Shown here piece after piece: positions 5,285-62,500 of a DNA stretch of 64,000 nt. Both the position numbers and the translations under genes were made by a program. Under the pieces are notes generated by a model. It was given only the letters and a program-made list of their open reading frames with translations. It had not been told where the DNA came from and ran no database searches. The stretch lies in contig NW_024704742.1 of NCBI RefSeq assembly GCF_018977255.1, positions 115,384,001 to 115,448,000 on the forward strand, in the 5' to 3' direction. The number at the start of each line of letters is the position of its first letter. Position 1 is the stretch's first letter. The stretch comes from Callorhinchus milii (lineage: Eukaryota).

Positions 5285-5600
5285 GGAGTCCTGTAGCTCA
5301 ATGGTTAGAGTACTCGCTTGGCAAGCGAGAGACCTGGGTTCGGGTCCCGGCAGGGCATACCTTGGGCAAGTTTCCTCACTCCACACACCTAATAATAATC
5401 CCTCAAAACAAAAAAACAATAATAAATTGGTCACTTCAATGCATGACTGTTTGTGGAACACTGCTGTGCGCAATTGGCTGCCGCGTTTCACCCACAATTA
5501 TGCAGTCAATTCACTTTACAGTATATTCTGTGAAGCGCTTTGAAACATCTAGAAGATATGAATAGTGCTATATCAAATGCAAGGATTATTTTTATTATTA
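5285..5600 (+). mobile_element. tRNA-Ala-derived SINE, short form, older tail variant
   Basis: Same head and body as the young copies; tail GAAACATCTAGAAGATATGA. Confidence 0.88.
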
Positions 5601-11418: not shown

Positions 11419-11584
11419 ATGGCGACCGTGGACGCGGACCCCGAGGCTTCGTGCAGCAAACTCAGCCCCTCGCCATCACACGCCACCCACCGCTTCCTCG
11501 ACAACAAGTTCTATCTGCTCGTGGTGATCGGGGAAATTGTTACGGACGATCATCTGAGATGTGCCATTTCAGATATAGAGCGAG
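11419..11584 (+). CDS. MAP1B: Microtubule-associated protein 1B, coding exon 1 (55 codons + 1 nt)
   Basis: ATG at 11419 in good context (AGGATGG). Translates MATVDADPEASCSKLSPSPSHATHRFLDNKFYLLVVIGEIVTDDHLRCAISDIER, matching the recalled MAP1B N-terminus (MATV...SHRFLDSKFYLLVVVGEIVTEEHLRRAIGNIE). Ends at donor GAG|GTAAGG, phase 1. Confidence 0.96.
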
Positions 11585-17768: not shown

Positions 17769-17870
17769 GTATCCGCTCCTGGGACACAGACTTGATAGCC
17801 TGCAACCTGGACCAAGAACTCAAGCTCTTTGTATCACGTCATTCAGCTAGATTTTCAGCAGACGTTAGAG
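17769..17870 (+). CDS. MAP1B: MAP1B coding exon 2 (102 nt)
   Basis: Acceptor CTTTATTTCTAG| and donor GAG|GTAAGG. In frame with exon 1: (G)IRSWDTDLIACNLDQELKLFVSRHSARFSADVR(G), versus recalled MAP1B GIRSWDTNLIECNLDQELKLFVSRHSARFSPEVPG. Confidence 0.97.
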
Positions 17871-32446: not shown

Positions 32447-32759
32447 TATAATAATAATAATCCTTGCATTTGATATAGCACTTTTCACGTCGGGAGGACG
32501 TCCCAAAGCGCTTCACAGAACACACTGTAAAGTGAATTGACTGTATATTTGTGGGCGAACGCGGCAGCCAATTGTGCACAGCAATGTCCCACAAACAGTC
32601 GTAGATTGAAAATGACCAATTTATTATTGTTTTTTTTGGAGGGATTATTATTAGGCGTGTGGAGTAAGGAAACTTGCCCAATGTCTCGCTCTGCCTGGAA
32701 TTGAACTCAGGTCTCTCGCTTGCAAAGCGAGTACTCTAACCACTGAGCTACAGGACTCC
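32447..32759 (-). mobile_element. Full-length young SINE, short form
   Basis: Complete tRNA-like head to (ATT)n tail. Confidence 0.92.
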
Positions 32760-40302: not shown

Positions 40303-41242
40303 AGTCATAAAATCAGAAAAGAAGCTTCAAAATTGAACATATGAACATATTGCTATGAACTAGAAACCACCACAATAAACCATCAACAGATTACATTTGT
40401 ATGCCACCTTTCATGTCAGGAGGAAGTCCTAAGGTGCTGGACAGTCAGGGATTTGGACCACATGGATAGTTAAGTAGAACAAATATAAAACACAAATGTG
40501 TAATCTTTTCGCTTCTATCATTGGGAATTTTCTGAGCAAATATCCCTGAGAAACTTGTTCCTTATTGAAGATGTTGAACATCTCGATCTGCACAATTCCA
40601 AAGGAAATCCTATCTTCAAGTCAAATGTGAATTTGAACTTCATGATCCAGGGAGTTTTGGTCATTGCAATTTTCCTGTTCTCTCCTGAAGGCACTAAACG
40701 CTGCTGGCATGTAGATTCACATATGCCGGCAACTCACTATAGTCTAATCCAAATGGCCATTCATGCATCAGCCTGGTCATTAGTGAGGTCAGAAAGGCAA
40801 TGCAATAGTGTGTTTGGATGCTATAATATTAAATAATCCTTGCATTTAATATAACGCCTTATCATGTTGTCAAAGTTTTCCCAAGTGCTTCACAGGATTT
40901 ACTGGAAATTGTAGTGACTGTGTATTTTTGTTCTGCGTTAAGACCACTTTTGACCTGTTTTGCAATATCCAGCAGGACTCATTGAATAAGAATAAGGAGG
41001 AGAAATTCCTCCGGGGTTTAGATTTGACCTTTTTTCACAGCATTTTAGAGTTGTCAAAGATGGACAATTGTGAAAATTAAGCCAATTTGGGGTGGTTTTC
41101 TTTCCAAGAATTACAGAACACCCGTTTCAAAATTAAGACTCAATATTAAGAATTGTCCATTCTAGGCCAACGCCAATTGTTGTGCTTGCAATGCTGCCAT
41201 GGTTTAGAACAGCCAGCTCGACACAGAGCTAAAAGTTAAAAA

Positions 41243-41512
41243 TCCCTTTCAGTTCATGTACTGCCGATACTTTCTTTTCTGCTGCACGTTAACAGCAAAG
41301 GCATTCACGGAGCCATCCACTTTCTTTCCCTTTGTGGTATCAAAACCACCAAAACCCATCTGCTTCATCATTTCAATTTCTTCCTCTGTTTTCCCCTCCA
41401 TATCTGCCTCTGAAATCTGATATTCTTTTCCTGCCTTGTCATCGTTTTGCCTCGAAGGGGAATCTGAAGCAGACCTGTGTCGCCATGGAGACCTCGATCT
41501 CCTTCTGTATGG
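41243..41512 (-). pseudogene. SNRNP27: Processed, truncated pseudogene of U4/U6.U5 tri-snRNP 27-kDa protein
   Basis: Minus strand reads [89 protein letters not shown], matching the recalled SNRNP27 C-terminus (..[64 protein letters not shown]). No introns, TGA at 41251-41249 in place of Arg, N-terminus missing. Confidence 0.9.
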
Positions 41513-42229
41513 GTCAGGCCAGTCTCCTGGCCTGAATTGTCCGGTTGCACACTACACAGTGCCTTTGCCAACTAAGCTGTTGGGGGAGCTTAACTGAAAA
41601 ATAATCCGCGGGCAGAGTTCACCTGCAACAACAACAATTTACATTTGTAAAGCATCTTTCACGTCAGGAGGATGTCCCGATGCCCTCAGAAAGGCAATGC
41701 AACAGTGCATTTGCATTGCCTTTCTGAGTACCTTGGGACAGACAGTCAGGGATGTGGACCCGAGCTGGGGGGGTATTACAAAATTGTGATCGTGTATTAC
41801 AAAAATCACGGCACTTTGCAAATGTCAAACACTTTGAGATATCTTCCCGATGTGAGAGACAGTTTATCAAAATGCAAAGGTTATTATTATAATTCTCCTC
41901 CGTTGATTCAGAATGGGTCAGCGGCAAAGCAGATAATTCTGTCTCTTGTGTTGCAATGGTTGTACAACAGTTGGAAAGTAGGTTGGAAGTCCAATATATT
42001 ACATAAGGTCGGTTTGAATGAGATTGCAAGAGTAGGATCAGTGGCATTTCCATTACAAAAAAATGAAGAGCATTTTAATCTGCTATATTTCATGGAGCAG
42101 TTCATATCAAAATTTGCCCAAAAGCTGAACTCACTTGATTGTCATACCTTTTGTCGTGGAGTAAGAATTGCAAATGATAAAATTCTGAATCAGTGTGGCT
42201 GCTCTTCCCAACCTGTTATTAAAGATAAG

Positions 42230-42512: not shown

Positions 42513-43030
42513 CAGGGTGTCCCGACTGGCAGCCCGTGGGCCGCATTTGGCCCAGGGGATGATTTCAACCGGACCGCGAACGATTTCCAACTTCATTGTC
42601 CAACGAGCAAATCCAGGCAACACAAGCCAATCAAGGTCACCAGGGTCTCGGGCTCTGCCCGGGAATGTTTCTGGCCAATCAGGAGATGGTCACCAGGAGC
42701 TCAGGGTCTGCCCGGCAATGTTTCTGGCCAATCAGGAGATGGTCACCAGGAGCTCAGGGTCTGCCCGGCAATGTTTCTGGCCAATCAGGAGATGGTCACC
42801 AGGGGCTCAGGCTCTGCCCGGCCATGTTTCTGGCCCATCAGGAGATGGTCACCAAGGGCTCAGGCCTTGCACGGCCATGTTTCTGGCCAATCAAGAGTGG
42901 GTCACCAGGGGCTCAGACTCTGCCCGGCAATGGGACTGGCCAATCAGGATAAAATATTGTTTATGTGGCCTGCAAATGTTTCTTAAATCCAACCTCCGGT
43001 CCACAGCAGCTGAAAGGTTGGACCACCCTG
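42513..43030. mobile_element. Non-autonomous hAT transposon (MITE) with internal 53-bp minisatellite
   Basis: Perfect 8-bp TSD TTTTAAAC at 42505-42512 and 43031-43038; TIRs CAGGGTGTCC.. / ..GGACCACCCTG. Confidence 0.9.
42625..42950. repeat. 53-bp tandem repeat, ~6 units
   Basis: Unit TTTCTGGCCAATCAGGAGATGGTCACCAGGAGCTCAGGGTCTGCCCGGCAATG; CCAATC phase positions 42675, 42728, 42781, 42834 (variant), 42887, 42940. Confidence 0.95.
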
Positions 43031-60396: not shown

Positions 60397-60698
60397 TATC
60401 CTTGCATTTGATATAGCGCTTTTCACGTTGGGAGGACGTCCCAAAGCGCTTCACAGAACACACTGTAAAGTGAATTGACTGTATATTTGTGGGCGAACGC
60501 GGCAGCCAATTGCGCACAGCAATGTCCCACAAACAGTCATGGATTGAAAATGACCAATTTATTATTGTTTTTGGTTTTGGAGGGATTATTATTAGGAGTG
60601 TGGAGTAAGGAAATTTGCCCAAGGTTTCGCCCTGCCTGGAATTGAACTCAGGTCTCTCGCTTGCAAAGCGAGTGCTCTAACCACTGAGCTACAGGACC
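60397..60698 (-). mobile_element. Full-length young SINE, left arm of inverted pair
   Basis: Complete head and tail. Confidence 0.92.
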
Positions 60699-60828: not shown

Positions 60829-61147
60829 GGAGTCCTGTAGCTCAGTGGTTGAGCACTCGCTTTGCAAGCGAGAGACCTGAGTTCAATTCCAGACAGGGCG
60901 AAACCTTGGGCAAATTTCCTTACTCCACACGCCTAATAATAATCCCTCCAAAACCAAAAACAATAATAAATTGGTCATTTTCAATCCATGACTGTTTGTG
61001 GGACATTGCTGTGCGCAATTGGCTGCCGCGTTCGCCCACAAATATACAATCAATTCACTTTACAGTGTGTTCTGTGAAGCGCTTTGGGACGTCCTCCTGA
61101 CGTGAAAAGCGCTATATCAAATGCAAGGATTATTATTATTATTATTA
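60829..61147 (+). mobile_element. Full-length young SINE, right arm of inverted pair
   Basis: GGAGTCCTGTAGCTCAGTGG head to (ATT)n tail. Confidence 0.92.
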
Positions 61148-62417: not shown

Positions 62418-62500
62418 GTCAGAAAATCCTTCACCACAGAAGTGATGTTTTGGAAACAGTTGTCCTCATTAACCCTTCTGATGAGGCAGTGAGCACTGAG
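62418..62500 (+). CDS. MAP1B: MAP1B coding exon 3 (83 nt); gene continues beyond the window
   Basis: Long polypyrimidine acceptor CCTTCTTTCTTTTCTCAATAG| and donor GAG|GTAAGG. In frame: (G)QKILHHRSDVLETVVLINPSDEAVSTE, matching recalled vertebrate MAP1B. Confidence 0.97.

Follow-up and report, generated by a model that had tools for sequence, protein, structure and literature searches.

Introduction

Capture of message fragments at broken DNA has been described in mouse zygotes, where pieces of spliced mRNA joined into Cas9 breaks are reported to be cut at both ends, to lack poly(A) and to show short microhomology (PMC4516963). Snap-back repair, for its part, is described as leaving inverted repeats at junctions (PMC5728401). 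For cartilaginous fishes, a recent preprint, from whose main text the words shark, chimaera and Callorhinchus are absent, counts 14,081 retrocopies at 5.4% of loci, and ties the retrocopy counts of non-mammals to their CR1 or Tx1 content (bioRxiv 10.64898/2026.06.26.734816). CR1 is described as stringent (PMC5470649), and L2, CR1 and SINEs as prevailing in the elephant shark genome (PMC5381603); PMC3022923 and PMC3747384 served as general background only.

The window considered here, a stretch of 64,000 nucleotides of Callorhinchus milii DNA, carries a 270-nt piece of SNRNP27 coding sequence in antisense orientation within a MAP1B intron. This piece is very probably a dead, doubly truncated processed pseudogene fragment, and with a probability of about one half it was patched into a DNA break. 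The known systems are set beside the locus again at the end of the text.

Identity of the SNRNP27 copy

The copy and its main lesion are placed as follows.

41243..41512, minus strand: processed SNRNP27 fragment; parent codons 50–139, from the end of exon 2 to the start of exon 6; differs from the present mRNA by 5.3%
41249..41251, minus strand: premature stop at R137, removing 13 C-terminal residues common to relatives

Read on the minus strand from 41512 to 41243, the copy comprises 90 codons with zero frameshifts, which bears out the frame of about 90 codons that an earlier reading of the sequence alone had assigned to SNRNP27. Residues 50–139 of C. milii SNRNP27 (P0001, XP_042200455.1) align with it by tblastn without gaps and with 85 of 90 residues identical (E 1e-54). 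P0001 is the best of 102 relatives, the next being 80% identical; the human SNRNP27 chain 6qw6_X matches at E 5e-29, and positions 1–44 of the 56 in Pfam SNRNP27 (PF08648) are covered. The 5′ end can be placed only to within a few bases (41508–41513), and at the other end homology may extend a few bases beyond 41243, out of frame, to 41235.

The amino-acid changes with respect to P0001 are H51Y, R59W, K72N, H80Y and R137stop. The mutated codons at residues 59 and 137 are TGG and TGA, as had been noted when they were called CpG-type lesions; such an origin is likely for both, although R59 may have been AGG in the parent. The 13 residues lost through the R137 stop are identical in all nine aligned relatives. 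The coding sequence is thus disabled, being cut at both ends and carrying this stop, and the parent-length open reading frame (ORF) by which a functional retrogene is judged is absent, 50 of the 149 parent codons remaining open. The stop recurs: two of 23 inspected relatives (those of at most 115 residues plus eight hand-picked, out of 102), both of them ENA proteins, end at the same residue. These proteins, P0074 and P0091, are SNRNP27-like, and P0091 also carries the copy's His-to-Tyr change; they look like independent pseudogenes hit at the same mutable sites.

Placement within MAP1B

Three coding exons of the host gene were located by MAP1B relatives, with AG/GT ends.

11419..11584, plus strand: MAP1B exon 1, coding part
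17769..17870, plus strand: MAP1B exon 2
62418..62500, plus strand: MAP1B exon 3

Intron 2 (17871–62417) accordingly spans 44.5 kb. Because the MAP1B exons lie on the plus strand and the copy on the minus strand, the copy is antisense within this intron, as had been claimed. Exon 2, which is 102 nt long and in frame, is missing from the Polypterus MAP1B model P0107, in which exon 1 is joined straight to exon 3; it could be skipped, or could merely have been missed in that model.

Parent exons and spliced message

Contigs from four of the 24 listed public runs (X2, X5, X6 and X11) were compared with the window over 40850–41850. Runs X2 and X5 belong to one study, with about 890 million letters of contigs; the kind of library is not on record, and they were taken as genomic DNA. 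Runs X6 and X11 belong to another study and are presumed to be RNA. The parent exons recovered within the copy are as follows.

41493..41512, minus strand: last part of parent exon 2; junction 41493/41492 inferred
41410..41492, minus strand: parent exon 3, 83 nt; bounded on one side by X2 record 14
41330..41409, minus strand: parent exon 4, 80 nt; unlike sequence to either side of it in X2 and X5
41265..41329, minus strand: parent exon 5, 65 nt; junction 41265/41264 inferred

In the presumed genomic assemblies, two contigs, record 13 of X2 with 635 nt and record 22 of X5 with 624 nt, match the copy over 41329–41411 only, with 320 unlike letters before this match and 232 or 221, respectively, after it; the surplus over the 80-nt parent exon consists of the AG and the G by which the match overlaps the splice sites. 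Record 14 of X2 fits from 41494 to 41410 and continues with 102 unlike letters. In the presumed RNA, by comparison, X11 record 5 (1,241 nt, depth 377) fits 41243–41505 without a gap and with 14 differences in 263 nt. The copy therefore fuses two exon junctions that are seen directly (41410/41409 and 41330/41329) and two that are inferred (41265/41264 and 41493/41492). The former of the inferred pair is based on the distance-to-end values in X2 (25 at 41288, 5 at 41327) and on gene model P0097, which departs after the same codon. For the latter, homology starts or resumes at this point in eight of the 23 inspected relatives, and contigs of X2 and X6 both start at 41497. A retained intron end at 41505–41508 in place of exon 2 is allowed by the contigs alone and was set aside on these eight gene models. 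Exons 4 and 5 of human SNRNP27 likewise measure 80 and 65 nt.

With parent exons separate in genome-sized assemblies and gap-free in presumed mRNA contigs, the description of the locus as an intronless copy of a multi-exon parent holds, and the copy is almost certainly mRNA-derived. Duplication at the DNA level of a parent that is itself intronless over this span, the case named as counter-evidence in advance, found no support: exon 4 is bounded on both sides (X2, X5) and exon 3 on one (X2), which, provided that these contigs represent the parent gene, leaves that origin a negligible probability.

The parent message continues beyond 41243, the 3′ end of the copy, for 914 letters in the X11 contig and 981 in X6. 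At most 33 of the letters past this end can be coding, so that a 3′ untranslated region (UTR) of about 900 nt and the tail are missing from the copy.

Anatomy of the junctions

The following elements lie at or near the two ends.

41514..41535, no strand: perfect 9-bp inverted repeat with a 4-nt loop (arms 41514–41522 and 41527–41535), abutting the 5′ junction
41150..41158, plus strand: left copy of a 9-nt direct repeat, the right copy being 41534–41542
41235..41242, minus strand: T-rich 3′ junction, with a word that, if shifted by one base, matches the Phe-Asn codons following in the parent

The hairpin described earlier at the 5′ junction is real, with exact arms. It is one of 11 distinct perfect stems of at least 9 bp (loop 3–10) in the 64,000 bases, and the chance that such a stem falls within 30 nt of either junction is about 0.9%. 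As RNA, a 71-nt segment over the hairpin region folds at only z −1.79, with 10 of 200 shuffles as good. The hairpin is a candidate fold-back repair scar, and could instead be old flank sequence. An inverted 5′ segment of the twin-priming type was considered at this position and rejected, no opposite-strand joint being found among the 15 of 60 contig joints inspected. The depth of X11 in the bin 41496–41529 is wholly accounted for by record 5, and a loose plus-strand likeness near the hairpin to the parent's start codons was taken as chance.

After the 3′ end of the copy there is no poly(A) or A-tract; together with the 914–981 letters of parent message that lie past this point, this upholds the claim that the copy is tailless and cut at its 3′ end. 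No target-site duplication was found either, the longest word common to both ends within 30 nt being 4 nt. The 9-nt direct repeat was rejected as such a duplication: it lies 84 nt from the 3′ end, and the 84-nt filler that it would need is not fitted by the parent mRNA contigs. A 9-mer repeat arose by chance in 117 of 5,000 trials with flanks of 100+40 nt, and in 315 of 5,000 with flanks of 100+100 nt. The Phe-Asn-like word at the 3′ junction, which occurs at 0.0023 per base on the minus strand, marks a candidate site of priming by microhomology, or of a small indel, where the parent is presumably rich in U.

The flanks are single-copy in X2 (depth 9–15); the bins 41156–41223 and 41530–41597 are single-copy in X5 as well as in X2, and nothing else in the 64-kb window matches them. 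This single-copy depth excludes flanks formed by an LTR element.

Presence and age of the insertion

X2 has contigs that carry the letters of the window across both junctions, and in X5 and X6 such contigs span the 5′ one; the X5 contig over the 3′ junction reaches just 18 letters into the copy. Locus contigs differ from the window at six of 1,949 letters, against 5.3% between copy and mRNA, and no empty allele was found among the 15 of 60 contig joints inspected. On these grounds the insertion appears far older than present polymorphism and is probably fixed, as judged from two studies. Joints skipping from 40927 to 41623 were discarded as an empty allele, high-copy repeats lying on both sides. 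Position 41288 within the copy is itself polymorphic, with G in the window and the parent-like A in the X2 locus contig.

A probable second SNRNP27 copy

X5 record 21 (153 nt, depth 2.8) fits 41297–41449 without a gap over two exon junctions. It has five parent-like letters and four private ones, the latter amounting to two stops, one missense and one silent change. Record 23 of the same run, which overlaps it by 30 letters, extends to 41508, beyond the presumed boundary of exons 2 and 3, and continues with 285 unlike letters. The two records represent a probable second dead processed SNRNP27 copy elsewhere in the genome, although depth is low and record 21 is missing from X2; this copy may extend further 5′. 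The sequence-only reading had expected mRNA retrocopies to be uncommon in a region dominated by L2/CR1. The sources that describe CR1 as stringent and L2/CR1 as dominant agree with that premise, but the count of 14,081 retrocopies and the second copy leave it weak.

Selection, the 50-codon ORF and expression

The two reading frames that bear on possible function are as follows.

41252..41401, minus strand: 50-codon ORF, parent M87–N136; open, with five silent and no missense differences from the mRNA
41368..41442, minus strand: upstream ORF of 24 codons in another frame, which runs across the start codon of the 50-codon ORF

Of the 14 differences between the copy and the X11 mRNA contig, 10 are known by letter (eight silent, two missense), the others (the stop, R59W and two silent changes) being inferred from counts, alignment ends and P0001. 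H51Y and one silent difference, at 41506, fall outside the fit of this contig. In total the copy differs from its parent by 15–16 changes, 10–11 silent (three of the 11 inferred) and five non-silent. Under six mutation models, with site counts taken from the copy's own codons, the pairwise dN/dS is 0.11–0.18 (P 0.004–0.051; small counts, equal rates assumed), compared with the 0.5 or more given as the expectation for a dead copy and a constrained parent (PMC5470649). A three-lineage model that includes the second copy gives 0.25–0.35 on the window copy (P 0.006–0.04), and nine silent changes are private to the window copy with respect to the mRNA and the second copy, against five amino-acid changes.

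The internal ORF of 50 residues that had been noticed earlier is indeed open from 41401 to 41252. For its five silent and no missense changes P is 0.003–0.01, or 0.012–0.04 when the stop is counted, the ORF having been chosen after the fact; all four missense changes sit 5′ of it. Its start has a purine at −3 and a G at +4, a context inherited from the parent. Its penultimate residue is the equivalent of human M141, which is described as contacting SNU66 and PRP8 (PMC11098459) and which positions U6 snRNA. A further ATG lies upstream at 41486 (15 codons). The exact 50-residue sequence was not found in the protein collection, where the best of 25 short matches is 88% identical; its absence from nature is not implied.

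The copy is very probably not functional today. The loss of 13 conserved residues to the stop, the two upstream ATGs and the upstream ORF that overlaps the start all argue for a dead copy; the dN/dS of 0.11–0.18, below 0.5, runs against it. The comparison with the parent, proposed as a check on function, is thus not cleanly neutral and keeps the door slightly open. We weigh the silent excess lightly, since counts are small, some changes are inferred, the ORF was picked post hoc and protein-like copies are those that get noticed; it is a weak hint that the copy or its donor may once have been under selection.

One contig of X6, 488 nt long and with a depth of 8.3, shows the letters specific to the copy and continues into the right flank. 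Its depth is 0.8% of that of the parent's contigs (1,006–1,108), and the contigs are without strand; it could derive from MAP1B pre-mRNA or from library DNA. The X6 contigs cover mainly the right flank and X11 has none listed on the unique flanks, which is uninformative either way on expression. That each MAP1B pre-mRNA would carry some 270 nt antisense to SNRNP27 follows trivially from the position in the intron; a regulatory role for this segment, at 0.8% depth, is unsupported.

Repeats in the window

Repeats in the window finish in TTA or TTG runs and not in poly(A): there are 38 such short U-rich runs, 25 of at least three TTA/TAA units and 13 of at least three TTG/CAA units. Five Rfam tRNA-like heads score 38–55 bits, and four of them are followed, some 300 nt further on, by a TTA/TAA run.

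5287–5600, 60831–61147, 32449–32757, 2160–2475 and 60627–60698: tRNA-headed SINE family, from Rfam tRNA matches

The Rfam scan gave nothing at the SNRNP27 copy, and Pfam at its curated cut-off gave nothing in any of eight repeat-like or nearby ORFs, so that the L2/CR1 labels used here follow PMC5381603. Three further features were observed near the copy. At 41673–41740, a 30-nt inverted repeat (87% complementary, 8-nt spacer) splits a high-copy repeat fragment; many contigs of other copies of that repeat join about 41676–41680 to 41740–41744, so that some 60 nt look inserted here; this would be another scar of the fold-back-like kind, at a distance of 130 nt from the SNRNP27 copy. A short low-copy repeat at 41088–41155 has a depth of 35–109 in all four runs, compared with about 9 for unique flank in X2, and is not repeated within the window. 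A minisatellite occupies 42635–42949, with 5.9 copies of a 53-nt unit at 89% matches and a CCAAT-like word in the unit.

Origin of the insertion

The copy is cut at both ends and has neither poly(A) nor target duplication, as break repair leads one to expect; with LTR flanks likewise absent and a hairpin at one junction, capture at a break fits. The earlier proposal of an mRNA fragment inserted by template switching or break repair stands as to the message origin, and break capture agrees with the junctions as a candidate route. As an insertion route, break-repair capture is about evenly balanced against the other routes taken together. A germ-line reverse transcriptase (a LINE, or polymerase theta itself) would have made cDNA from spliced SNRNP27 message, and this cDNA would have been joined into a double-strand break by end joining, not by normal poly(A)-primed insertion. 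An A-rich broken end may have annealed to a U-rich spot near the coding end, there either priming the copying or capturing a ready cDNA, and the other end may have been resolved by fold-back synthesis, giving the 9-bp hairpin. The copy would since have drifted, and would do nothing except leave with the spliced-out intron.

A LINE could also have produced a copy that is equally dead today by nicking its target, priming at a U-rich stretch inside the mRNA and stopping early at the 5′ side. Repeats of this window do end in U-rich runs, four of the five tRNA-like heads being followed by a TTA/TAA run, and with a shift of one base the T-rich 3′ junction agrees with the Phe-Asn codons that come next in the parent; doubly cut copies without a tail have been described (PMC5322556), and retrocopy counts in non-mammals are reported to follow CR1/Tx1 content (bioRxiv 10.64898/2026.06.26.734816). 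The defining target duplications of 8–35 nt near the ends are absent here, such copies are tied to L1 in the report that describes them, which gives none in platypus or chicken (PMC5322556), and the hairpin would be left unexplained, so that internal priming is possible but unlikely. Capture by an LTR retrotransposon through two template switches would also yield copies that are 3′-truncated and without poly(A) or target duplications, as reported in PMC5131818, but both flanks are single-copy (X2, X5) and match nothing else in the window, and we regard it as highly improbable. An improbable origin, though one that would account for the missing ends and the silent excess together, is a second-hand copy, made at the DNA level or from RNA, of an older processed SNRNP27 copy or retrogene once under selection. 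X5 record 21 is indeed another intronless copy, with two stops, and shares the window's letter at 41360, unlike the present mRNA, as record 23 appears to do at 41506; the nine silent changes unique to the window copy, against five amino-acid changes, point the same way. Against such a donor, the two common letters, both silent, may have arisen through more recent change on the parent's side, the window copy has none of the second copy's four private changes, the listed differences of X6 and X11 show a single mRNA type, and the second copy is known from low-depth contigs.

It is very unlikely that the copy is a functional nested element, whether its 50-codon ORF were translated, now or formerly, from a minus-strand transcript or an antisense intronic RNA regulated SNRNP27. 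The absence of missense changes from an ORF with five silent ones, when all four missense changes lie 5′ of it, a start with purine −3 and G +4, the retained M141 equivalent (PMC11098459) and the presence of the insertion in X2, X5 and X6 would agree with such a role. The region was, however, picked post hoc from a kind of copy that is preferentially noticed when protein-like, the start context is inherited and masked by the overlapping upstream ORF, the conserved 13-residue tail is lost, and the sole contig with the copy's own letters in presumed RNA has a depth of 8.3, compared with 1,006–1,108, and extends into intronic flank. A more far-reaching reading, which we consider quite improbable, is that the 50-codon ORF, in which the RS domain and the final 13 residues are missing, once encoded a shortened spliceosomal peptide that was made from within a MAP1B intron and kept by purifying selection, or descends from a lost functional retrogene; the locus would then also document, in nature, the capture of an mRNA through priming at a U-rich site within it, among mobile elements that end in U-rich repeats.

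Comparison with known systems

The copy is most likely an ordinary dead pseudogene fragment of an already known class of retrocopies. No paper on it was found in the literature on SNRNP27 pseudogenes and on Callorhinchus milii retrocopies, and the supplements of the bioRxiv preprint could list it. As a dead fragment it matters little, retrocopies being plentiful in cartilaginous fishes by the recent count. What modest value it has lies in its being young and still readable, a test case for asking which enzyme is responsible for retrocopies where stringent L2/CR1 LINEs dominate the genome: copies that have a hairpin at the junction but neither tail nor duplication speak for break repair or internal priming, not for poly(A) priming. 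If the silent excess is real, a lost retrogene or a truncated splicing-factor peptide would be of interest to specialists in the spliceosome and in new genes.

Vertebrate processed pseudogenes of housekeeping mRNAs resemble the copy, as described, in their fused junctions, a parent located elsewhere, a stop and a divergence of a few percent, and its length is near the low end of their reported medians of 375–674 bp (PMC5470649; bioRxiv 10.64898/2026.06.26.734816). Unlike them, the copy is without 3′ UTR, poly(A) or target duplication, and its dN/dS is below the 0.5 rule (PMC5470649); it differs from a classical L1-type, poly(A)-primed retrocopy both in the 3′ UTR and poly(A) and in the target-site duplication. 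Tailless retropseudogenes are likewise 3′-truncated and without a tail, possibly from internal T-rich priming, and doubly cut forms exist, but they are reported to have a target duplication of 8–35 nt within about 15 nt of the 3′ end, which the copy lacks, and to be L1-dependent and found only in therians and the anole lizard (PMC5322556). LTR-mediated retrocopies, also partial and without poly(A) or target duplication, are described as having the two parts of one discontinuous LTR element on either side, whereas the copy has no such flanks (PMC5131818).

The products of RT-product-mediated double-strand-break repair (RMDR) are, in the published account, also internal spliced fragments cut at both ends, without poly(A), target duplication or LTRs; the SNRNP27 copy differs in being a natural, inherited event in a chimaera and in having a hairpin at one junction (PMC4516963). 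Snap-back, synthesis-dependent microhomology-mediated end joining likewise places a short inverted repeat beside the junction, but that work deals with local templates in Drosophila and not with mRNA capture, and the hairpin at 41514–41535 is only a candidate product of such a reaction (PMC5728401).
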